Assembly (NCBI GenBank): GCA_001002325.1
Contig: LCNZ01000007.1
Location: 26,763 to 90,762 of the forward strand
DNA length: 64,000 nt
Direction: 5' to 3'
Source: Candidatus Amesbacteria bacterium GW2011_GWB1_47_19
Lineage (GTDB): Bacteria; Patescibacteriota; Microgenomatia; CAZETR01; Amesbacteraceae
Positions 3,240-47,100 of this stretch are shown here, piece by piece. Each line of letters begins with the position of its first letter. Within the stretch, counting starts at the first letter, position 1. A program made the position numbers and the translations under genes. The notes below the pieces were generated by a model, which saw only the letters and a list, made by a program, of their open reading frames with translations, was not told the DNA's origin and made no database searches.

Positions 3240-3740
3240 GTGGGTAAGAATATAGTGATAATCGGGGTGATATTGGCCGTCGGTCTGGCGTTGGTGGGAG
3301 GAGGAGTATGGTGGCTGCAGAGAAAAGAATCCGGAGCACCGGGGACGGGGGAAGTAATGAGGGGGCCGGAAATCGTGACTCCGGCGGATGAGTTTGAGCC
3401 GGCAGCGACGCCGGAGTTGTCACCGGTTCCGACGCAAGCCACAGAGATACAGGGAGGGGCGGTGAATATCAAGAAGTTTACAGTTGAGGGGAGCAATTAT
3501 AAATTTTCACCGGCGACGATCAAAGTGAAAAAAGGTGACACGGTACAGCTGACGTTTAAGAGTATGGATGCGATTCACGACTGGAGTTTGGATGTATTTG
3601 ATGCGGCGACAAACCAGATCGGGGAGGGAGAAGAGGAGGAAATTGAGTTTGTGGCGGAAAAAGCAGGTACATTTGAATTTTACTGCTCGGTGGGGAACCA
3701 CAGGCAGATGGGGATGAAGGGGAAGTTTATAGTGGAATGA
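3240..3740 (+). CDS. Cupredoxin (type-1 blue copper) domain protein, membrane-anchored
   Basis: GTG start and N-terminal TM helix. The C-terminal domain has the T1 copper ligand pattern H...C-x4-H-x2-M (HDW...YCSVGNHRQMGM). Confidence 0.6.
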   Translation: MGKNIVIIGVILAVGLALVGGGVWWLQRKESGAPGTGEVMRGPEIVTPADEFEPAATPELSPVPTQATEIQGGAVNIKKFTVEGSNYKFSPATIKVKKGDTVQLTFKSMDAIHDWSLDVFDAATNQIGEGEEEEIEFVAEKAGTFEFYCSVGNHRQMGMKGKFIVE

Positions 3741-4169: not shown

Positions 4170-4811
4170 ATGATAGTGGTGAATTTTAAAACGTATAAAC
4201 AGGCGACGGGGTACAAGGCGACTGAGTTGGCACATATTTGCAGAAAAGTACAGCAGGAGACCAAGGTAAGAATTGTGGCGGCTGTGCAAACGGCGGATTT
4301 GAGAAACTGCGTGGAAACGGGAGCGGAATGCTGGGTGCAGCACGTGGACCCGGCGGACCAGGGGGAAAATACGGGGTGGGTGACGGTGGAAGGGGTGGAG
4401 GAAGCAGGCGCCAGAGGGACACTTTTGAACCATTCGGAACATAAGCTGGATAAAGAAGTGCTGGAAAAAACCATGAAACTGATTGCCGGCATGGCGTTTG
4501 AAGTGTGTACCTGCGCGGCTGACCCGGATGAAGCCAGGTGGGCGGCTGAGCTGGAGCCGAATTATGTAGCTTATGAACCACCGGAACTGATAGGGAGTAC
4601 GGAAAAATCGGTGGCTTCCGAGAAATCGGGGACAATCAAACAAATTGTACTCAGTACTCACTGCCCAATACTGATCGGGGCGGGGATACACAGCCCCGAA
4701 GATGTGAAAGCAGGATTGGAAATGGGAGCCAAGGGAATCCTGTTGGCAACGGATATCGTATTGGCGGAAGATCCGGAGTACCAGCTGCGTCAGCTGGCAA
4801 GGGAGTTTTAA
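4170..4811 (+). CDS. tpiA: Triosephosphate isomerase, archaeal-type
   Basis: 'IVVNFKTYKQATG' and 'GTLLNHSEH' match the short (~215 aa) archaeal TIM rather than bacterial TpiA. Confidence 0.75.
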   Translation: MIVVNFKTYKQATGYKATELAHICRKVQQETKVRIVAAVQTADLRNCVETGAECWVQHVDPADQGENTGWVTVEGVEEAGARGTLLNHSEHKLDKEVLEKTMKLIAGMAFEVCTCAADPDEARWAAELEPNYVAYEPPELIGSTEKSVASEKSGTIKQIVLSTHCPILIGAGIHSPEDVKAGLEMGAKGILLATDIVLAEDPEYQLRQLAREF

Positions 4812-5399: not shown

Positions 5400-6101
5400 A
5401 TGATGGATAAAAAGACCGTGTTTATTACGGGGGCGAGCAGGGGAATAGGTGCGGCGACGGCTAAGAAATTTTTGGCAGAAGGGTGGCAGGTGGCGGGATT
5501 TTATGTAAATAATCGGGTGGAGGACGGGGAGAACATTAAGTATTACCAGGCGGATGTGTCTGATGAAAGAAGCATTAAAGAGGCTTTCGGGAAAGCCTTT
5601 TTGGATTATAAAAGAGTGGACTGCCTGGTAAACTGTGCCGGCGTGCTGGAGGATAAATACCTGGATGAATATAACAAAGCACTGATGCAGAAAGTGATGG
5701 ATGTCAATGAAGTCGGGGTGTACCTGTGTACCAAAGAAGTAATCGGAAAAATGGAAGAGGGGGCGATAGTGACTATCAGCTCGACAGCCGGGCAGGTTGG
5801 CAGTTCCGATCCGATTTATGCGGCGACAAAAGCGGCGGTGGTGGCGTTTTCCAAAAGTATGGCGGTGATGCTGGCGCCGAAAGTCCGGGTGAACTGCGTA
5901 GCTCCCGGCCTGGCGGATACCGACATGGGAAGATTCGGATGGAGCCAGGGGGAATTTCAGAAAAGGGCGGAGATGATCCCTCTTCGAAAAATTGCCTCGC
6001 CCCAGGATATTGCCAACGGGATTTATTTTCTGGCCAGTGACCAGGCGGCACATATTACCGGAGCCTGCCTGGATATTAACGGAGGATATGTACTTCGATG
6101 A
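5400..6101 (+). CDS. Short-chain dehydrogenase/reductase (FabG-like)
   Basis: 'TGASRGIGAATAKKF' Rossmann motif and SDR catalytic region (YAATKAAV). Confidence 0.8.
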   Translation: MMDKKTVFITGASRGIGAATAKKFLAEGWQVAGFYVNNRVEDGENIKYYQADVSDERSIKEAFGKAFLDYKRVDCLVNCAGVLEDKYLDEYNKALMQKVMDVNEVGVYLCTKEVIGKMEEGAIVTISSTAGQVGSSDPIYAATKAAVVAFSKSMAVMLAPKVRVNCVAPGLADTDMGRFGWSQGEFQKRAEMIPLRKIASPQDIANGIYFLASDQAAHITGACLDINGGYVLR

Positions 6102-6559
6102 TTTATATAGGGGCGGATCACCGGGGATGGGAATTGAAGGCTAAAATCAACAGGTGGCTGAAGGGCAGGGGATATGAGTTTGAAGATCTCGGGGCATATG
6201 AATACAACACGTGGGATGACTTTGCGGATTATGCCATTGATACCGCCCAGAGAGTGACAGCAGGGGGTGAAAAAAACCGGGGAATTCTGGTCTGCGGCAG
6301 CGGGATAGGAATGTGTATTGCCGCCAATAAAGTTAGGGGAATCCGGGCGGGCTTGGGATTTGCGCCGGATCAGGTCCATGCGGCGAGGAAGGATGATAAT
6401 ATCAATATCCTGGTTTTGGCTTCAGACAATACGGATGAACTGGCGGCGCTGGAGCTGGCGGAGAAATTCCTGGAAACGGAATTTGTGGAGTCGGACAATT
6501 ATTTGAGGAGGATTGAAAAGATTTCCAGGTATGAAGGACAACCTGCCGTGGGTAAATAA
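6098..6559 (+). CDS. rpiB: Ribose-5-phosphate isomerase B
   Basis: 'GILVCGSGIGMCIAANK' RpiB/LacAB motif; 153 aa. Confidence 0.8.
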   Translation: MIYIGADHRGWELKAKINRWLKGRGYEFEDLGAYEYNTWDDFADYAIDTAQRVTAGGEKNRGILVCGSGIGMCIAANKVRGIRAGLGFAPDQVHAARKDDNINILVLASDNTDELAALELAEKFLETEFVESDNYLRRIEKISRYEGQPAVGK

Positions 6560-29671: not shown

Positions 29672-30121
29672 ATGAAGTGTCCGTTTTGTGCTGCCAGCGA
29701 TACATCGGTGCTGGAATCCAGAGTAGCGGATGACGGACAGTCACTGCGTCGTCGGCGCGAATGCGCCAACTGCCAAAAGCGCTTTACCACTTTTGAGCGG
29801 GTGGAGGGGCCGACTATTTTCGTCATTAAAAGAGACGGCAGCCGCCAGCCTTTTGACAGGGACAAAATTGTCCATGGAGTGACCAGGTCTTTTGACAAAC
29901 GACCGGTTTCCATTGACCAGGTTAACCATCTGGCTGACGAAGTGGAACGGGAAGTCAGACGCCGGGAGGTGTCGGAAATGTCCAGTAAAGTTATTGGCAA
30001 AATGGTACTAAAAAGACTAAAAAATATTGACAAAGTTGCCTGGCTGCGGTTTGCCAGTGTGTATCTGGAGTTGTCAGATGTGACGGAATTTGAAAAGTTA
30101 TTGGAAAAAGTCGCTGTCTAA
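29672..30121 (+). CDS. nrdR: Transcriptional repressor NrdR
   Basis: 'MKCPFCAASDTSVLESR...CANCQKRFTTFE' zinc ribbon followed by an ATP-cone. Confidence 0.9.
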   Translation: MKCPFCAASDTSVLESRVADDGQSLRRRRECANCQKRFTTFERVEGPTIFVIKRDGSRQPFDRDKIVHGVTRSFDKRPVSIDQVNHLADEVEREVRRREVSEMSSKVIGKMVLKRLKNIDKVAWLRFASVYLELSDVTEFEKLLEKVAV

Positions 30122-34550: not shown

Positions 34551-36899
34551 ATGTTACCGGTGAATCTGACGGGGTTGTTGGTCCAGTTGGGAATTTTGGC
34601 GGCGGTGCTGGGAGCACTTGTTGTGCTGGGGATTTTCGGCGGATATGTGGGGATTGCTTTGTATCGGCACAAAGACCGGGAGGAAAAAAGCCTGCAAATG
34701 GTGGTGCTGCAAGTAGCTGTTCCCCGGGACAATGAAATCAAGATTGATGCCATGGAGCAGATATTTTCGAGCTTGTATTCGATCAAGAAAGGAAAGATGG
34801 GATGGTTCGGACTGCTGACATTTTTGCAGGTTCAGCCGCATATTAGCTTTGAGATAGTAGCGCGCAGGGAAGACATAAAATTTTATATCTCGGTGCCGGA
34901 TAAAATGCGGGATCTGGTGGAAAAACAAATCCACGGCGGTTATCCGGGGGCGGAGATAAAAATAGTGGAAGAGCCGACCATTTTTACCGATGAAGGACGG
35001 GTGGAATATGCCTGGATGGTGCTGCGTAATTCGGCGCATTATCCGATGAAAATATTTAAAGACCTGGCGACAGATCCGATGGCCTCCTTAACTTCGGCGA
35101 TGGCGAAAATGGGGGAAGGGGAGGGAGCGCATATCCAGATTCTGATATTTCCGGCCGAAAACAAATGGAAAGGCAAAGGCCGAGCATGGATCGGCAAGAC
35201 CAAGAAGAACGAGGCCAATCCGGAGAAAGCGTCGTACAAGGTTGATCCCAAAGTAATGGAGGCAGTGGACAATAAGATCAGCAAGGCCGGATTTATGACC
35301 ACCATCCGACTGGTAGTGACATCTGCGGATGCGGGGTCGGCTAAGGCACACATGGCAAATCTGAGAGCGGCTTTTGAACAATTTTCCGGAGACCTGAACG
35401 GATTTAAAAGTAAAAAAATAAGAATGAAAGGTAATTTTATGACGGACTTTATTTACCGTTATCAACCAATGGTGTGGTGGGGCAACTGGACGGTTTTAAA
35501 CAGTGAAGAACTGGCGACGATATATCATTTTCCCAACAAAACAATTGAAACCCCGCATATCCATTGGTTGAATGCCAAACGGGCACCGGCACCGCAGCAG
35601 ATTGCGTCTGAAGGCCTGTATATCGGTAAAAGCGTATTTCGGGGAATTACCCGGCCGGTATTTATTACCGATGAAGACCGGGAAAGGCATATGTATATAG
35701 TAGGCCGAACAGGGACGGGAAAAACGGAGTTTTTGAAGACCATGATTTTGCAGGATATCCAGGCGGGAAGGGGTGTGGCAGTTATTGATCCGCATGATCT
35801 GGCTGAGGATCTTTTAGGGTATATTCCACCGGAAAGGGCGGAGGACGTGATCTTTTTTGAACCATCGGATGAACAGTGGCCGATGGGGTTGAACCTGCTG
35901 GAGACACGCAACGAACAGGAAAGGCATATGGCAACCAACGCGGTAATAGGGATGATGTACAAACTGTATGATCCGCATAAAACCGGAATCATTGGACCGA
36001 GATTTGAACACGCTATCAGGAACGCAATGCTGACAGTGATGGATGCTATTCCCGGCGGGACATTTATCGAAGTGGTGCAGACACTGCAGCGGCCGGAATT
36101 CGTACAGGAAATGCTGCCGAGGGTGAAGGACCCGTTGGTGAGGAGGTATTGGACCGACCAGATAGCCCAAACGTCGGAATTTCATAAATCCGAAGTGCTG
36201 GATTATATCGTGTCCAAATTCGGCCGGTTCGTAACCAATAAAACTATCAGAAATATAATCGGACAGTCGGTGTCGGCGTTTGATTTCCGGAAAGTGATGG
36301 ATGAAGGGAGGATTCTGATCGTCAACCTGTCCAAAGGAAAACTGGGGGAGGAGAACAGCAACTTTCTGGGACTGGTGCTGGTGCCCCGGCTGCTGGCGGC
36401 AGCGATGAGCCGGGCGGATATGCCGGAGGCTTCCAGGCGGCCGTTTTATCTGTATGTGGATGAGTTCCAGAACTTTGCCACGCCGGATTTTGCCACCATT
36501 TTGTCCGAGGCCAGGAAATATAAACTGAATCTGACGGTGGCCAACCAATTTACTTCACAAATGGAGGATGAGGTAAAAAATGCGGTATTCGGCAACGTGG
36601 GAACTTTGATTTCGTTCCGGGTGGGGGTGGGAGACGCCAATTACCTGCAGCATGAATACAGCCCGACGTTTAACGAGGCGGATCTGTTAAATATCGAGAG
36701 ATACAATGTATTTATTAAAACGGTGGTGCATAACGAACCGGTACCGCCGTTTACTATGGATGTGACCAAGGATATTGATAAGGAAAGGAAGATGCGCAAT
36801 TCTCAACTGGCGGAGGCGATTAAAGAGTTGTCCCGGCTGAAATACGGGCGGGATGTGAGAATTGTAGAGGCGGAGATAGGAACCAGGTCGAAATTGTAA
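34551..36899 (+). CDS. VirD4/TraG/TraD-like type IV coupling ATPase (T4SS DNA-binding domain protein)
   Basis: N-terminal TM helix; Walker A 'GRTGTGKTEF'; 'LYVDEFQNFATPDFATILSEARKYKLNLTVANQ' matches the TraG/TraD C-terminal region. Confidence 0.6.
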   Translation: MLPVNLTGLLVQLGILAAVLGALVVLGIFGGYVGIALYRHKDREEKSLQMVVLQVAVPRDNEIKIDAMEQIFSSLYSIKKGKMGWFGLLTFLQVQPHISFEIVARREDIKFYISVPDKMRDLVEKQIHGGYPGAEIKIVEEPTIFTDEGRVEYAWMVLRNSAHYPMKIFKDLATDPMASLTSAMAKMGEGEGAHIQILIFPAENKWKGKGRAWIGKTKKNEANPEKASYKVDPKVMEAVDNKISKAGFMTTIRLVVTSADAGSAKAHMANLRAAFEQFSGDLNGFKSKKIRMKGNFMTDFIYRYQPMVWWGNWTVLNSEELATIYHFPNKTIETPHIHWLNAKRAPAPQQIASEGLYIGKSVFRGITRPVFITDEDRERHMYIVGRTGTGKTEFLKTMILQDIQAGRGVAVIDPHDLAEDLLGYIPPERAEDVIFFEPSDEQWPMGLNLLETRNEQERHMATNAVIGMMYKLYDPHKTGIIGPRFEHAIRNAMLTVMDAIPGGTFIEVVQTLQRPEFVQEMLPRVKDPLVRRYWTDQIAQTSEFHKSEVLDYIVSKFGRFVTNKTIRNIIGQSVSAFDFRKVMDEGRILIVNLSKGKLGEENSNFLGLVLVPRLLAAAMSRADMPEASRRPFYLYVDEFQNFATPDFATILSEARKYKLNLTVANQFTSQMEDEVKNAVFGNVGTLISFRVGVGDANYLQHEYSPTFNEADLLNIERYNVFIKTVVHNEPVPPFTMDVTKDIDKERKMRNSQLAEAIKELSRLKYGRDVRIVEAEIGTRSKL

Positions 36900-36944: not shown

Positions 36945-37016
36945 GGATCCGTAGCTCAACGGTAGAGCGGCTGTCTTATACACAGTATGTTGGAGGTTCG
37001 AATCCTCCCGGATCCA
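36945..37016 (+). tRNA. tRNA with anticodon TAT (reads AUA; tRNA-Ile(UAU)-like)
   Basis: Cloverleaf folded by hand: acceptor GGATCCG/CGGATCC, D-arm GCTC-AACGGTA-GAGC, anticodon stem GCTGT/ACAGT with loop CTTATAC, T-arm GGAGG-TTCGAAT-CCTCC. CCA is not encoded. Confidence 0.7.
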
Positions 37017-37144
37017 CAGATGCCGGGAGGCAACATTTGTTGTGCCCGGACCGCTTCAGGATGTTGTAGGTCAATCTTGGCCACAGAAGTTTACATCGGT
37101 TGTAAAATGGGCGGATGGCAGGCGGCAAGTTAGAACGATTAATA

Positions 37145-37418: not shown

Positions 37419-38294
37419 TTACAGTTCTAGGAGGCGGGTGGTGGATTCGGTGACGTCGACGGTAATGTGGTCCAGATATTTCTGAGTGGAAGAGAGGCGG
37501 CGATGGCCGACGTGTTTGTGGACTATTTCCGGCTCCACGCCGTGCTTCAACTGGTGGGCGATAAAAGTGTGACGCAGATCATTGATTTTGGCATCTTTGA
37601 CACCGGCTTTGTGGAAATAGCGGCCAATGGCGGTGCGGATGTTTCTGACTAACAGCGGGCGTCCGGTTTTGGTAACAAACAGGTGGGGGTCGACGACTTT
37701 GGGGCGGATGGCCAGGTAATTGGTAACGGCTGAAATAGCCGGGCGGTTGAGAAAAATGTCCCGGGCGGGATTGTTTTCCAGAGACTGGATGTGGACTTCG
37801 GCCTTTTTGAGATCATCCACCCGGAGACTGGCCAGCTCCGATATGCGCATACCCGTTTGGAGGAGCAGCTCAATAATGGTGGAGATACGGATATCCAGAC
37901 GGGCGGCGTCGCGGAGGTTTCTGACTTCGGCGGGGGAAAGGAAGCGCGGAGGTTTGGTGTCGTACTTGGGGTGGATCAGGGGATGGGCGGGATTTTCGGT
38001 GACAATATCCTGATTCTGGAGGAATTTAAAAAAGGTTTTCAGAGAATTGATCTTGCGGCTGACGCTCTTTGGAGTGTAGTTTTTTGAGGCCAGATCCTGA
38101 ATGTAGCCTTCCAGATGTTCGGTACGCACGGTCGTAGCCTGGGTAATGCGATGGCTGTCCAGGTGTTTTCGGAGCTGCTGCAGGTCGCTGCCGTAAGCGG
38201 TGGTGGTAGCCGAGGATCGTTTTTGAGTTCGGAGGTGGGCCAGGAACTTCTCCAGGGCAGTCGTAAAACTTACCGGCTGGGGTAAATCTGTCAT
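37419..38294 (-). CDS. Tyrosine site-specific recombinase (XerC/XerD-like integrase)
   Basis: C-terminal catalytic 'RHTFIAHQLKHG...HVGHRRLSSTQKYLDH' (R..HxxR..Y) and an N-terminal SAM-like domain. Confidence 0.8.
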   Translation of the reverse strand: MTDLPQPVSFTTALEKFLAHLRTQKRSSATTTAYGSDLQQLRKHLDSHRITQATTVRTEHLEGYIQDLASKNYTPKSVSRKINSLKTFFKFLQNQDIVTENPAHPLIHPKYDTKPPRFLSPAEVRNLRDAARLDIRISTIIELLLQTGMRISELASLRVDDLKKAEVHIQSLENNPARDIFLNRPAISAVTNYLAIRPKVVDPHLFVTKTGRPLLVRNIRTAIGRYFHKAGVKDAKINDLRHTFIAHQLKHGVEPEIVHKHVGHRRLSSTQKYLDHITVDVTESTTRLLEL

Positions 38295-38791: not shown

Positions 38792-38867
38792 TGGTGGCTA
38801 CGGCTGGATTCGGACCAGCGATCCCTTGTTTATGATACAAGTGCTTTAACCACTAAGCTACGTAGCC
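38792..38867 (-). tRNA. tRNA-Met (anticodon CAT), elongator-type, CCA encoded
   Basis: Reverse complement gives GGCTACG-TA-GCTT-AGTGGTTA-AAGC...anticodon loop ATCATAA...T-arm GCTGG-TCCGAAT-CCAGC-CGTAGCC-A-CCA. The 1:72 position is a G-C pair. Confidence 0.8.
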
Positions 38868-39541
38868 AAGGTTTTTGCGAGACCATGTATCTCGCCGAGG
38901 ATTTTATAATAGATTCTGGCTGGCCGTTTAACTCTAATTGATAATGTGCCGTAGTGATCGTTAAAATTTTCAAAATCTTTTTTAAGTGGGTATTTTTTGA
39001 AGCTGGTTTTGGTAAAACTTTCGAGAGGAATTCCTGTTTGACTTGACCAATATTTTTTTACTATACCCTCTCGAATTTTATGAGTTTCGTTGATACCCAC
39101 ATAGCAAGATAATTCTTGCTTAGGTATTCGATAGCTCGATTTGAGCCAATTTATGTATGATTTTATCATTAGGGGATCAGAGTTGCATAGTTCTATTCTT
39201 CTTGCCTTTTTCGTTCCCTCGGACCAGTAGAGGCAAATCCCTGCGATTTTCCTTTCTTTGATTGACAGCCGACGAAACTCTTTTTCTCCATCATGGTTAT
39301 GTTTATTAATGAGTTCCAGCCTTCTCCTTTTCAAGATGAGGGAGTTCTTAAGACGGGCTTTATTTGATGCGGATATTTGGTCTGATTTGAGTTTATCTAC
39401 TTGCTCGGGTGAAAGAATAATATGTCTTGTCCATAGACTGGCAGTGCTTTTGGCCACATTAAGTGCTTTAGCAATATTTCTCACACTTGTTCCAGAAGTT
39501 CTTAATTTAATAGCCTCTATTCGTAAGGAACTCTTTGACAT
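38858..39541 (-). CDS. Free-standing HTH + LAGLIDADG-like homing-endonuclease-like protein (paralog A)
   Basis: N-terminal HTH (RTSGTSVRNIAKALNVAKSTASLW). C-terminal 'IAGICLYWSEG...CNSDPLMIKSYINWL...VGINETH...GTLSIRV'. The NSDP...I...L block resembles the '[17 protein letters not shown]' block of the FtsH intein endonuclease. Its 3' end overlaps the tRNA-Met by ~10 nt. Confidence 0.55.
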   Translation of the reverse strand: MSKSSLRIEAIKLRTSGTSVRNIAKALNVAKSTASLWTRHIILSPEQVDKLKSDQISASNKARLKNSLILKRRRLELINKHNHDGEKEFRRLSIKERKIAGICLYWSEGTKKARRIELCNSDPLMIKSYINWLKSSYRIPKQELSCYVGINETHKIREGIVKKYWSSQTGIPLESFTKTSFKKYPLKKDFENFNDHYGTLSIRVKRPARIYYKILGEIHGLAKTLAT

Positions 39542-39680
39542 CTATAGATATCATATTATTCGGTTTTTGTTTGGTTTGTCAAGAGTACTTTATTATTTAT
39601 TATTGAGCTACGCAGCCTCGAGAGCATTTTACCAAAAATCCGCTTTTGACTGGATGAGATCAGGACGGTTCTTCTAATAA

Positions 39681-40355
39681 CTAGTTATATTTTACTGCCA
39701 TAATTAGTCCTTTTATTTTCCTTAAAAGATCAGTACTTTTGAGAATCCTAATTCTCAATGTCCCAAAATAATTTTCCGGATGGTCATATGTTTTTTTCCA
39801 GGAGGTCTTTTGAAAAAAAGGTTTATAAAATTGGGTATTGGGGATACTAGTAATTTCCGACCAATACTTTTCGATTTCTTCAACCCGATGACTATGAGAT
39901 TCATTTATTCCGACCCTTAATCTGATTAAGTCTTTGGAAACAGATAGGGAATTGATTAACCATTCAATAATAAAGTTGATCATTTCCGGATCAGAATTGG
40001 CAAATCCGGCCATTTTGTCCTTCTTGAATCCCTCCGCCCAATATAAAGCAGTCCCTGCCAGAAGTTTTTCTCTGGCGCTCAGGTTAATTAGCATGTTTTT
40101 CGCTTCTGATCTGATTAGTTTTTCTTTGGTAAGTCTATACGCTTGTTGTTTTAGAGCATAAGAGAGTCTTCTTCCATAGTACGGATCCCTAGAGTTTTTC
40201 TCTAACTGAGATATTTGTTCAGGAGTGAGCTTAATATCTCTGCACCATAAACTGGCTGTACTGGTAGAGACAGCAAGATCCCGTGCAATTTCTTTGATAC
40301 TTTTCCCTTCGGATCTGAGATGCCTGGCTTCAGTCTTTTGTCTGGTTTTTGCCAT
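39681..40355 (-). CDS. Free-standing HTH + LAGLIDADG-like homing-endonuclease-like protein (paralog B)
   Basis: N-terminal HTH (RSEGKSIKEIARDLAVSTSTASLW); 'LLAGTALYWAEGFKK...ANSDPEMINFIIEWL...VGINESH...GTLRIRI'. Clear paralog of 38858..39541. Confidence 0.55.
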   Translation of the reverse strand: MAKTRQKTEARHLRSEGKSIKEIARDLAVSTSTASLWCRDIKLTPEQISQLEKNSRDPYYGRRLSYALKQQAYRLTKEKLIRSEAKNMLINLSAREKLLAGTALYWAEGFKKDKMAGFANSDPEMINFIIEWLINSLSVSKDLIRLRVGINESHSHRVEEIEKYWSEITSIPNTQFYKPFFQKTSWKKTYDHPENYFGTLRIRILKSTDLLRKIKGLIMAVKYN

Positions 40356-40396
40356 GGTAGAACTAACATACCTATTATCAGATATCGTTTTATTAT

Positions 40397-40425
40397 TGTC
40401 AAACCAGCTTCTGGATGATATGATT
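40397..40425 (+). promoter_or_regulatory. Candidate promoter (TTGTCA-17-TATGAT) for the intron-containing tRNA
   Basis: Hexamers with 17-nt spacing, ~25 nt upstream of the tRNA 5' end. Confidence 0.3.
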
Positions 40426-40448: not shown

Positions 40449-40711
40449 TGCGGGGTAGTGTAGAGCTGCACGGAAGGCTAGTAGTATGGGCCCCGCCGGT
40501 AGTAATACCGGTGCGCAAACTTGGCTATATCGGTGGACATCCTGAGCTTGTCGAAGGACAATACCGAGGCAACCTCGAAAGAGAGAGTCCGTAGAGACTA
40601 CACGCCAAGCACCCCGACGTTATGTCGGGGTGATGATATAGTCCGACTCCCCGAGTAATCGGGGTCAGAATGCATAATCTTCCAGACCGGGCGCGACTCC
40701 CGGCCCCGCAA
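40449..40711 (+). tRNA. tRNA-Met(CAU) (initiator-like acceptor stem) interrupted by a group I intron in the anticodon loop; exons 40449..40479 and 40673..40711
   Basis: Exon 1 reads TGCGGGG-TA-GTGT-AGAGCT-GCAC-G-GAAGG-CT and ends at U33. Exon 2 reads CATAA-TCTTC-CAGA-CCGGG-CGCGACT-CCCGG-CCCCGCA-A. The spliced anticodon loop is CUCAUAA. The acceptor GCGGGG/CCCCGC-A-A matches E. coli tRNA-fMet. Followed by a T-run. Confidence 0.65.
40480..40672 (+). ncRNA. Group I self-splicing intron (193 nt, no ORF) in the tRNA-Met anticodon loop
   Basis: P1: exon GGCU pairs with IGS GGCC (40489-92) with U·G at the splice site. P10: IGS UAUG pairs with the 3' exon start CAUA. P7 strands AGACUA (40595-600) and UAGUC (40639-43) flank the P8 hairpin CCCCGAC-GUUAU-GUCGGGG. 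P9 is CCCCGA-GUAA-UCGGGG with a GNRA loop. The terminal G is at 40672. The core resembles the Tetrahymena intron (GAUAUAGUCGGACC) and the Azoarcus tRNA-Ile intron (GUAGAGACUAGACGG). Confidence 0.65.
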
Positions 40712-40783
40712 CACATTTTTTGATCTTCTTGTATTTCGTGGTATAGTCAATTTCCGCTTTCCGGCTGCGATATAATTCCGGTA

Positions 40784-44182: not shown

Positions 44183-47100
44183 ATGGCTACACTTCGCCAA
44201 GGTCCTACGGGTGGTACTAAGAAAAAGCTACCAGTGAGAGGTTTTATGCTGCAGCTGAACCTGGATTTCCAGAAACTGTTGTGGTTGCTGGTGGTGATAT
44301 TGATGGGATTGTCACTTTTGGAGCTGTGGAATAGCGGTAAGCAGACCAGCCAGGAAGTTCAACTGTCGCAAGCGCTGTCTGATATCAAAGACGGCAAGGT
44401 GGAGAAAGTGGAGATTTTCTCGGAACGGCTGTCGCTGAAATATAAAGACAGCAAAGACCAGTTTTTTTCCCGTAAGGAACCGGGGGAAAGTTTTACTGAG
44501 ATTCTGGAGAGGGCAAAGATCCCCGCAGAAGCTGTGCAGTATGAGATAAAAGATGAAACTTTCGGCCAGTTGATAGCGGCGGTATTGCCCAGCGTAATCG
44601 GGACGGGGGTGGTGCTGTTGGTTCTGTTGTATATGTTCCGGCAAGCCAGGGGTGCCCAGGATTCGGTATTTTCTTTCGGCCAGAGCCGGGCAAAATTGTT
44701 TGACAAGGGCAAACAAAGCGTGAAATTTTCGGACGTAGCCGGGGTGGACGAAGCCAAGAAAGAACTGGAAGAAGTGGTGGACTTTTTGAAAAGTCCGGGT
44801 AAATACCGGGCAGTAGGGGCCAGGACTCCCAAAGGGGCGCTTTTGGTGGGACCGTCGGGGGTGGGAAAGTGCGTGACCGGTGATACCATAATATGGACCA
44901 ATAAGGGATTGATGGAGATAAAAGAGGTCCCGCGTTACTATTATGTTGATACAAAATCGCATCGGGTTTACGGGGCAGGACTGGCTGGTTTTGATACGGA
45001 CAAGGTGATATCAAAGGATGAATTCGCTTCCCATTGGTACAATTTGGGTGAACAAGCAACCGTTAAAGTACAGTTGGCGCAGGGGTTTGATATAGAAGGG
45101 ACTCCCGAGCATCCGGTAGTAGTAATGGCCGGAGATGGCAAGTTACGATTTAGAAAATTACAGGATGTGAAACTGGGGGATTATGCTGCCCTGCAGTTTG
45201 GCAGAGGTATGTTTGGGAACTTACAAATGGTGGATGCAGACACGGCTTATCTGATGGGACTATTAACGGGAGATGGAAATATGAGTCATGCTAGTAGGGT
45301 GGGGTTGACTAATATTGATCCGGAAATAATCTCGTTTTTTGAAAATTATATAAAGAAGAGATATCCGGAGAATGCGATTACAGTGAGACAGCAGTCCTAT
45401 CTGGTGTCCAGTTGGCAATTTAAACGATCTCTTTATGAGATGGGGATGTCTTATCTGTTATCTTTTGATAAGAGTGTGCCGGTGACGATATTACAGGCAT
45501 CGAGAGGAATTCAGATAATGTTTTTGAGGGGTCTGTTTGATACTGACGCCAGTGTGGAGAAGAGCAGGGCGACGATAGAGTATACAACCGTTAGCGAAAA
45601 AATGGCTAAACAGATACAAATGATGCTATTGAATATGGGGGTGGTAGCCTATTTGAATGTCAAAGGAAAAACTGAAAATGGTTATTATCGGCCTGTTTAT
45701 CGTTTGAACATAACCGGGTCCCCGTTCGTGGAATTCAGCAGGCAAATTGGGTTCGGTTTGGTTAGAAAACAACGACTTTTGGAAAGGCATGTGGAGAAAA
45801 TGGGACGAGTGAATACTAATATTGATGTAATTCCCGGAGTCGGAGGGATGATAGAAGAAGCGTGGAGGTTGATTTCCGCTCGTAAGATGAGCAATGAAAA
45901 ACTATCAAAGACGGTTGATAAAGTGAGGAATAGGAATAGGGTTTCCAGACAAACACTAGAGGATTTTGTGGAGTATTCCAGCCAGACGGGAATGGAGATG
46001 CCTGACCTGGAGTATTTGGGAAATTTGTTGGAAGCTAAGCTGTTTTTTTCAAAAGTAGTAGAAAAAACGGAAAATAAGGGTGTGGTTTATGATTTTACCG
46101 TGCCTCAAACACATAGTTTTTTGGGAAACGGATTTGTAAATCATAATACACTGTTGGCCAGGGCGGTGGCGGGAGAAGCGGGAGTACCGTTTTTTTCAAT
46201 GGCAGGATCGGAGTTTATGGAAATGCTGGTGGGGGTGGGAAGTGCCCGGGTGAGGGATTTGTTTAACACAGCTAAAAAAGCAGCCCCGTCAATTATTTTT
46301 ATTGATGAAATTGACGCTATCGGAAGGCAGCGGGGACACGGGTTGATGGGTGGGCACGATGAAAGGGAACAAACATTGAATCAGATACTGGTGGAGATGG
46401 ACGGATTTACGCCTAATGATAATGTGGTGGTGCTGGCGGCAACAAACAGAGGGGATCTGCTGGATCCTGCACTTTTACGGCCCGGCAGGTTTGACCGGCG
46501 GGTGGTGGTGGATATGCCTGACATTGAAGGACGGAAAGCAATTCTGGCAATTTATGCCCGAAATAAACCAATAGCCGAAGGAGTGGATTGGAGTGCGGTG
46601 GCGAGAAGGACAGTCGGGTTTTCCGGAGCGGATCTGGAAAATATGCTGAATGAAGCGGCGATTGGTGTAGCCCGGGAAAACCACAAGACCATGACGATGC
46701 AGGATATCGAGGAAGCAGCTACGAAAGTAAAGCTGGGTCCGCAAAAGAAGCGGATGCAATCCGAGGAGGACCGGAAAATGACGGCTTACCATGAGGTGGG
46801 ACATGCGATTGTGACGTGGGCCCAACCGGGGATGGATCCGGTGCACAGGATATCGATTGTGTCGCGGGGAATGACATTGGGACATACGCTGGTGCCACCG
46901 TCGACGGACAGGGTACATGAGACTAAAAACCGGCTGTTGTCACAGGTGGCCATGATGCTGGGGGGAAGAGCTGCGGAAGAGATGGTTTTTTCCGAGGTCA
47001 CTACCGGTGCGGCTAATGATATTGATAAAGCCACCAGAGTAGCCCGGGATATGGTGATGGAGTACGGCATGAGCAGTCTGGGACCCGTCAATTACGGACC

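Follow-up and report, generated by a model that had tools for sequence, protein, structure and literature searches.

Free-standing LAGLIDADG endonuclease-like proteins encoded at the 5′ edge of tRNA genes in Candidatus Amesbacteria and related bacteria

The two adjacent genes considered here, open reading frames (ORFs) A and B, lie in a 64,000-nucleotide (nt) window, the whole stretch of DNA that was analysed, from contig LCNZ01000007.1 of Candidatus Amesbacteria bacterium GW2011_GWB1_47_19 (all positions follow the numbering of this window). Each encodes a protein with an N-terminal helix-turn-helix (HTH) and one C-terminal domain of the LAGLIDADG fold, and they belong to a family whose subfamilies are each tied to one tRNA species, the family gene standing immediately 5′ of the tRNA gene on the same strand. 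On balance, A and B are probably members of a free-standing, homing-endonuclease-like LAGLIDADG family targeted to tRNA genes, which would spread by 'intronless homing' with co-conversion of adjoining tRNA sequence. The preliminary description of the window had supposed an undescribed family, and this has held, as there is no curated model for it and no description was found in the literature. The novelty consists in an endonuclease-like LAGLIDADG family whose domain arrangement is new and whose setting is cellular rather than that of an intron, intein or phage, and in its association with the 5′ ends of specific tRNA genes, which is precise and previously undescribed.

Linkage to specific tRNA genes

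Linkage was assessed in 160 L-numbered loci, comprising 80 genome loci fetched with a profile of B and 80 metagenome loci fetched with a profile of A, across which family genes and tRNAs were annotated and 169 full-length family genes counted. A tRNA gene is called flush when it starts on the same strand within about 40 nt of the stop codon of the family gene. This arrangement occurs at 107 of the 169 genes, and at 54 of these 107 the stop codon lies inside the tRNA, whether as TAG at tRNA positions 8-10 (n = 24), as TAA in the D-loop (n = 11) or as TAG at positions 19-23 (n = 9). ORF A is of the first kind: its 3′ end overlaps the adjoining tRNA-Met by 10 nt, in agreement with the overlap reported earlier, and its last codons (...TTG GCT ACG TAG) bring the stop to tRNA positions 8-10.

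Sequence clustering divides the family into types with different tRNA partners. A-type genes are flush with tRNA-Met in 30 of the 31 cases with room, and the same tRNA adjoins the Levy-type (10/13) and a 'Met-9' group (9/9), while the Gln type is flush with tRNA-Gln(TTG) (18/20), the Lys type with tRNA-Lys(CTT) (14/14), the Ile type with tRNA-Ile(TAT) (4/4), and the Arg type with tRNA-Arg(TCG) (2/2). B-type genes (n = 67) are flush with tRNA-Met in just 14 cases. By-stander tRNAs are never occupied (Asp, 0/18; Trp, 0/13; Pro, 0/5). In another phylum, all four actinobacterial two-domain genes lie 39-101 nt upstream of tRNA-Gln(TTG) within a conserved order of desaturase/TetR, family gene, tRNA-Gln, glmU, and prs, which makes them an independent replicate. 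A comparison of gene neighbourhoods, as the preliminary description had proposed, therefore ties the homologues to tRNA loci and not to transposase or resolvase helpers. The same description took A and B for a free-standing homing-endonuclease pair, of which the free-standing state and the LAGLIDADG fold stand, but the pairing does not: A-type and B-type genes usually occur singly at the same initiator (fMet)/Met tRNA locus, A+B tandems are rare, and a conserved A+B heterodimer was rejected on these grounds.

Fold, conserved residues and distribution

ORFs A and B, whose length of about 225 amino acids (aa), N-terminal HTH, and conserved blocks were found as previously described, align without gaps at 37% identity (82/221, E 1e-44); B is the deposited hypothetical protein UX91_C0007G0088 of this genome. 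Searches of Pfam and NCBIfam with A and B returned HTH matches alone, all of them below gathering scores (HTH_23, HTH_38, HTH_7; E 1e-4 to 1e-3), and none to LAGLIDADG_1, _2, _3 or LAGLIDADG_WhiA at E <= 10, and single-sequence searches of solved structures gave no matches. The LAGLIDADG signal that had been anticipated from profile searches is thus absent from the Pfam models, but it emerges from the family profile and from fold comparison. A profile built from 40 relatives and compared with solved structures has as its best, though marginal, match the second LAGLIDADG domain of I-DmoI (E 0.024), setting LYWAEGFKK of the family opposite LYVAEGDK of I-DmoI, which contains E117 and K120; both residues have been mutated in catalytic studies of I-DmoI (E117A, Q42A/K120M; PDB titles). 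The AlphaFold model of B, a confident one (predicted local distance difference test, pLDDT, 89.8; predicted template modelling score, pTM, 0.73), consists of a three-helix HTH (bundle at residues 5-38), a 30-residue helix, and an alpha/beta domain, and fold comparison finds in the C-terminal domain of about 130 residues the alpha-beta-beta-alpha-beta-beta-alpha core of the LAGLIDADG superfamily. Structure modelling, which had also been suggested earlier, therefore reveals the C-terminal LAGLIDADG fold, and this fold is accepted for the family.

Conservation within the family is strongest in the blocks 'LYWAEG..' and 'NSDP..I..WL'. Within the first, E108 and G109 are present in 169/169 and K111 in 167/169 relatives, and the family alignment shows E108, G109, N120, and D122 of ORF A as invariant. 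As in I-CreI, I-CeuI, and I-DmoI, an invariant acidic residue stands at the end of the motif helix, and the Lys three positions further on aligns with I-DmoI K120. Catalysis by the family proteins is considered likely. A parallel had been drawn between the family blocks and the LAGLIDADG endonuclease of the FtsH intein in the same window. The blocks are indeed in register with the first LAGLIDADG block of that endonuclease (~45251), but the match is weak (hhalign probability 64%, E 6.6e-5, 36 columns). The intein region itself matches Pfam LAGLIDADG_3 at E 1e-21, and the FtsH-like ORF that carries it is a second, unrelated LAGLIDADG element.

Like the homodimeric and monomeric LAGLIDADG endonucleases, the family has both one-domain and fused two-domain forms, the latter being proteins of 400-580 aa from Actinomadura and Allonocardiopsis with two copies in one chain and the motif Glu in both halves. 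The predicted model of the Actinomadura fusions is an I-DmoI-like pseudo-dimer packed through the motif helices. Since such one-chain fusions exist, in a relation like that of monomeric enzymes to I-CreI-type homodimers, the one-domain proteins would presumably work as homodimers joined through the motif helices. Unlike I-CreI, I-CeuI, and I-DmoI, members of the family are not encoded in introns or inteins, their genes lie flush 5′ of tRNA genes, and they carry an extra N-terminal HTH and a connecting helix of about 30 residues, in addition to being too divergent for the Pfam LAGLIDADG models.

Word-indexed searches found 301 relatives of B and 140 of its own for A, nearly all of about 225 aa. 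Exhaustive profile search, with clustering at 50% identity, returned 607 clusters at E <= 1e-30, 3566 at E <= 1e-10, and 6414 at E <= 1e-3, the weakest of these matches possibly sharing the HTH only. Named sources are of the Microgenomates type within the Candidate Phyla Radiation (CPR), namely Ames-, Gottesman-, Woese-, Roizman-, Shapiro-, Davies-, Levy-, and Beckwithbacteria; homologues are labelled 'hypothetical', 'HTH domain-containing', 'transcriptional regulator' or 'transposase'.

Insertion, replacement and decay at tRNA sites

Evidence that family genes come and go at tRNA sites begins with the window itself (Table 1). The 16-nt remnant of an older tRNA-Met lies 61 nt upstream of A and is identical, but for 1 nt, to the start of the tRNA-Met gene in L001, a sister genome that has B (73% identity) and lacks A at the equivalent place. 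The complete tRNA-Met of the window is very unlike that of L001, although the two genomes have closely similar tRNA-Ile genes. At L081, which holds an A orthologue (60% identity), the order is promoter (TAAGGTATAAT at the equivalent place), 18-nt remnant, A, and complete tRNA-Met; the extended -10-like box of the window may be the promoter of the old tRNA-Met. On the simplest reading, A brought tRNA-Met sequence with it and disrupted the resident gene within the D-loop, so that A looks like a later insertion beside B.

Table 1. Features of the window; tRNA and intron calls are those of ARAGORN and Rfam
Feature	Position	Strand	Remarks
ORF A	38858..39541	-	227 aa, intact; N-terminal HTH and one LAGLIDADG-fold domain; A-type
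ORF B	39681..40355	-	224 aa, intact; same architecture as ORF A; B-type
Elongator-type tRNA-Met(CAT)	38792..38867	-	ARAGORN and Rfam; flush with ORF A
Sigma-70-like promoter of A	39555..39582	-	TTGACA-16-AATAAT; 11/12 matches
5′-end remnant of older tRNA-Met	39602..39617	-	GGCTGCGTAGCTCAAT; 16 nt, broken off in D-loop; between B and A
Extended -10-like box	39626..39634	-	TGGTAAAAT; 8 nt upstream of the 16-nt remnant; read from sequence
Sigma-70-like promoter of B	40374..40402	-	TTGACA-17-GATAAT; 11/12 matches
Promoter-like site of initiator tRNA	40396-40424	+	back to back with the B promoter match
Initiator-type tRNA(CAT)	40449..40712	+	interrupted by intron at 33/34; divergent from B
Initiator tRNA exon 1	40449-40479	+	
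Group I intron	40480-40672	+	193 nt, without ORF; inside initiator tRNA
Initiator tRNA exon 2	40673-40712	+	
ARAGORN 'tRNA-Asp'	29843-29926	-	84 nt; probably false (no Rfam tRNA match, coding-like sequence)
ATPase-like gene	34551-36899		782 aa, conserved
tRNA-Ile(TAT)	36945-37017	+	downstream of the ATPase-like gene; without family gene
Tyrosine-recombinase (XerC/D-like) ORF	37419-38294	-	between tRNA-Ile(TAT) and the tRNA-Met/A/B cluster
FtsH-like ORF	~44900-46060	+	1052 aa; intein with LAGLIDADG_3 endonuclease domain

A series of empty, occupied, and decayed sites is found at tRNA-Ile, where a family gene is present in 4 of 42 cases. The tRNA-Ile(TAT) site is empty in the Daviesbacteria locus L071, which reads upstream gene stop, 15 nt, tRNA, and is filled in L057 and L065, likewise of Daviesbacteria, by an insertion of about 770 bp made up of a promoter and a family gene. 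In L065, the tRNA-Ile is additionally of a different allele, behind which the final ~20 nt of the old allele remain. In L056, also of Daviesbacteria, the last ~30 nt of a family gene are left, and the old tRNA-Ile is broken in the anticodon loop and the T-loop with another complete tRNA-Ile inside. Broken copies of the family gene, frameshifted or truncated, also occur in L053, L080, and L147, with a weak partial match in L110.

These observations are brought together in the following proposal. The enzyme would cut an endonuclease-free version of its own tRNA locus in another genome copy, at a target in or at the tRNA gene, and recombinational repair would then copy in the endonuclease gene together with adjoining tRNA sequence. 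The tRNA would be transcribed with, or just behind, the endonuclease mRNA and be freed by normal tRNA processing, and because of this release the insertion would cost the host little. In the window, B would be the resident copy at the initiator-tRNA/tRNA-Met locus, and A would have come later with its own tRNA-Met, the initial 16 nt of the former tRNA-Met being left between them. Possible signs of such co-conversion are the foreign-looking tRNA-Met and remnant at A, and the new allele and 3′ remnant in L065. A further and doubtful extension is that family genes form natural 'cleave-and-rescue'-like cassettes, in which an endonuclease gene would be physically joined to a copy of its target, an essential tRNA gene, that resists cleavage, and would spread by destroying and replacing resident tRNA alleles.

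Several results weigh against intronless homing with co-conversion. Upstream tRNA remnants were found at just 2 of 104 flush genes (the window and L081), a third match being a neighbouring tRNA-Arg, and a 5′ remnant upstream of every flush gene is hence rejected. Resistance of the adjoining tRNA to cutting is unexplained, because the D-stems of flush and non-flush tRNAs show no general difference; GCTC is kept in 59 of 66 flush tRNA-Met, and immunity of the resident tRNA through altered D-stems is therefore not supported. Across many Microgenomates lineages, B-type genes remain intact and syntenic at 36-73% identity, and this pattern resembles prolonged vertical inheritance under selection more than the gain, decay, and loss of a purely selfish gene; in the Goddard-Burt cycle, as cited in PMC3984707, selfish endonuclease genes should decay once fixed. 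No family relatives were found in the viral contigs searched, and given that PHROGs and PADLOC likewise held nothing significant for the family, an origin in phage or defence systems was rejected. It was also rejected that endonuclease gene and tRNA always travel as one cassette, since flush tRNA-Met sequences mostly vary by host lineage. To tell vertical from horizontal descent, the identities of B-type proteins were set against those of the 782-aa ATPase encoded nearby, but this comparison gave no information (Spearman 0.20, p 0.24) because the ATPase values are saturated at 58-66%.

Other irregular tRNA sequences were noted in the comparison set. The flush tRNA-Met genes of L012, L088, L009, and L098 have a heavily remodelled D-arm without the usual TAGCTCA box, that of L009 with an additional duplicated 5′ segment; these cases are anecdotal and might represent escape from cleavage. 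Just 3′ of the B-type gene of L015 (~6000-6140), a second tRNA-Met copy has a hairpin-like D-loop insertion of about 65 nt. In L037 (11830-12672), a divergent family member is followed by an apparent tRNA 5′ half interrupted after ...GAGCAAGAAGCT; this half, in a locus that ends too early to show the rest, may belong to another intron-containing tRNA. The old tRNA-Ile(TAT) of L056 (~3290-3525) is split by two inserts with common termini GCAAT...ATTGGGYGTATTT, the first holding a complete, different tRNA-Ile(TAT) within a 12-bp inverted repeat and the second being a 36-nt hairpin in the T-loop; the motif GAATGCGAGGA..TTGGGTGTATTT recurs at L029 (~4500-4545) and L031 (~4745-4790), and this small element is unexplained. 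In the window, the placement of tRNA-Ile(TAT) downstream of the ATPase-like gene reflects a synteny kept across Microgenomates and in most related loci, and there is no evidence that the XerC/D-like ORF belongs to the element.

The initiator-tRNA intron and rival explanations

The intron on the strand opposite A and B is, as first described, a group I intron without ORF (Rfam RF00028, 40447-40665, 71 bits). Joining exon 1 (...GGAAGGCT) to exon 2 (CATAATC...) gives a 71-nt tRNA(CAT) that ARAGORN accepts. The preliminary description placed A and B between an elongator tRNA-Met and an intron-containing tRNA-Met. A gene between these two tRNAs is a conserved layout, but the intron-containing tRNA is of the initiator (fMet) type and not a second elongator, as judged from the ends of its orthologues (CGCGGGG at the start and CCCCGCAACCA at the end) and from the intron at 33/34, the typical position in tRNA-fMet (PMC13011429). 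The window copy has U1:A72 in place of the usual C1xA72, a 3-bp D-stem, and the atypical T-loop CGCGACU, which is probably functional because it is conserved in L017, L094, and L092. In L001 (5677-5870), the initiator-tRNA intron is about 121 nt long, without the ~72 nt at the centre of the 193-nt intron in the window, and falls below the Rfam gathering threshold; it is either decayed or a group I intron of unusually small size.

In the related loci, an exact-motif search missed many copies of the initiator tRNA and was replaced by an nhmmer profile of the intron-containing tRNA. With this profile, an intron-containing initiator tRNA was found directly upstream of 63 of 65 B-type genes (55 divergent, median distance 78 nt) and of all 13 Levy-type genes. 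Among A-type genes, 15 of 29 have it in this position, and no gene of the Gln, Lys, or Arg types does; in one Ile-type locus, a copy lies about 1.4 kb downstream. The intron is confirmed by Rfam in the five loci sampled (L004, L015, L017, L068, L084). Intron-less initiator tRNA genes stand beside five A-type genes and one Met-9 gene and beside none of the B-type or Levy-type. As A-type genes coexist with intron-less initiator tRNA genes, A would not target the intron site. Three orientations of the locus occur: fMet, gene, and Met on one strand; fMet divergent from gene and Met; and a Met-fMet operon divergent from the gene. The locus apparently rearranges often, since orientation differs even between the two Amesbacteria genomes (the window and L001). 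Fragments of the initiator-tRNA 3′ end (...CCCCGCAAC) of 10-27 nt follow the B-type stop by 6-82 nt on the gene strand in six loci (L017, L022, L052, L056, L071, L078), against ~0.1 expected by chance, with a complete intron-containing tRNA upstream; they may be footprints of inversion or duplication. The link between family and intron proposed earlier is therefore borne out for the B-type, but the partner shared family-wide is the 5′ end of a specific tRNA gene, with Gln, Lys, Ile, Arg, and actinobacterial members having no intron close by.

This association underlies the rival explanation that B-type genes are tied to the group I intron, either as a trans-acting endonuclease at its insertion site ('collaborative homing') or as a domesticated splicing maturase, a possibility that is to be taken seriously though it is less than probable. 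Both activities have established precedents, including LAGLIDADG maturases (PMC3984707), and collaborative or trans homing is exemplified by F-CphI with the psbA intron of cyanophage S-PM2 and by mobE with the nrdB intron (PMC3984707, PMC2790892), where, as with B and the tRNA-fMet intron, an ORF-less intron lies in the gene adjoining the endonuclease gene. Those examples concern protein-coding genes of phages and non-LAGLIDADG enzymes, whereas here the host gene is a cellular initiator tRNA, the target of B at the intron site is putative, and an intron partner is missing from most subfamilies. In Patescibacteria, internal endonuclease genes are absent from most tRNA introns, and the mobility of these introns was concluded to be limited in a survey that screened only ORFs within introns (PMC13011429). 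Position 33/34 in the anticodon loop is the centre of a stem-loop inverted repeat, at which a homodimeric LAGLIDADG enzyme might be expected to cut, and a maturase role for the intron of an essential tRNA would account for the strong conservation of the B-type. Across the B-type and Levy-type, the intron-containing tRNA is mostly divergent at a median of about 80 nt, but ancestral synteny of the fMet and Met tRNA genes, with a family gene between or beside them, could explain this association, and 14 B-type genes show the flush placement of every other subfamily, in their case beside tRNA-Met. A maturase would have no need of the invariant motif Glu, and an intron fixed throughout the clade would leave no targets, which speaks against continuing homing. 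For the B-type, trans-acting homing of the initiator-tRNA intron and domestication as maturase or regulator are both given real weight by its deep conservation.

An unlikely alternative extends domestication to the whole family, whose members would be non-catalytic DNA-binding regulators of the downstream tRNA gene or operon, so that linkage would reflect co-regulation and not mobility. The model for such a fate is WhiA (DUF199), in which two degenerate LAGLIDADG domains that have lost their catalytic acids are followed by a C-terminal HTH. The family likewise joins a LAGLIDADG scaffold to an HTH, here of transcription-factor/transposase type; A and B each have their own strong promoter-like site, that of B overlapping that of the divergent tRNA; and B-type genes are deeply conserved. 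Unlike WhiA, the family has its HTH at the N-terminus, a single domain, and an invariant motif Glu (169/169) with a Lys three residues on, and no sequence relationship to WhiA was detected with curated models at E <= 10 or in solved-structure comparisons. Close relatives differ in the presence of family genes, which also look patchily distributed in Actinobacteria and have tRNA fragments and replaced tRNA alleles as neighbours, and co-regulation offers no evident reason why such genes would arise anew in a flush position at six or more tRNA species. That A and B are accessory HTH proteins of an ordinary transposase or resolvase, or chance ORFs, is very improbable. The first ~40 residues do match HTH_23, HTH_7, and the N-termini of IS3/IS630 transposases weakly and below threshold, and some sources name homologues 'transposase', but these matches are confined to the HTH, neither a transposase catalytic domain, inverted repeats nor multi-copy insertion-sequence behaviour was seen, and thousands of conserved homologues of constant length argue against chance. 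The conserved 130-residue domain of LAGLIDADG fold and the tRNA linkage effectively refute this explanation.

For the preferred reading of free-standing, tRNA-targeted endonucleases, one of the closest known counterparts is SegB of phage T4, a free-standing endonuclease whose gene stands between those of tRNA-Arg and tRNA-Ile; it cleaves the tRNA region in related phages and is inherited with flanking markers (PMC2988022). The likeness consists in a free-standing endonuclease gene among tRNA genes, and the replaced tRNA alleles found next to A and to Ile-type genes resemble co-conversion. SegB differs in being a GIY-YIG enzyme of a phage, whereas the present family is LAGLIDADG and is found in chromosomes of CPR bacteria and Actinobacteria, and neither the flush position with a stop inside the tRNA nor one subfamily per tRNA species has been described for SegB.

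If A and B are indeed tRNA-targeted homing endonucleases, they would represent a large overlooked class of chromosomal free-standing LAGLIDADG endonucleases, new both in architecture and in the niche that it occupies at the 5′ edge of tRNA genes. The published view of tRNA introns in Patescibacteria as largely immobile (PMC13011429) would have to be revised. The family would comprise many compact natural enzymes, presumably with different long target sites and including one-chain versions from culturable Actinomadura, which could serve as starting points for meganuclease engineering. From a stop codon that lies within the tRNA, competition is expected between translation of the endonuclease and 5′ processing of the tRNA, which would keep expression of a selfish nuclease low. 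Such elements could also help to explain the fragments, replaced alleles, and unusual arms seen at tRNA loci of reduced genomes. Should the more doubtful 'cleave-and-rescue'-like reading hold as well, these genes would be the driving force, in CPR bacteria and in some Actinobacteria, behind turnover of tRNA genes, odd variants of tRNA, and scars left by fragments, and the B-type would in addition hold the initiator-tRNA intron in place.

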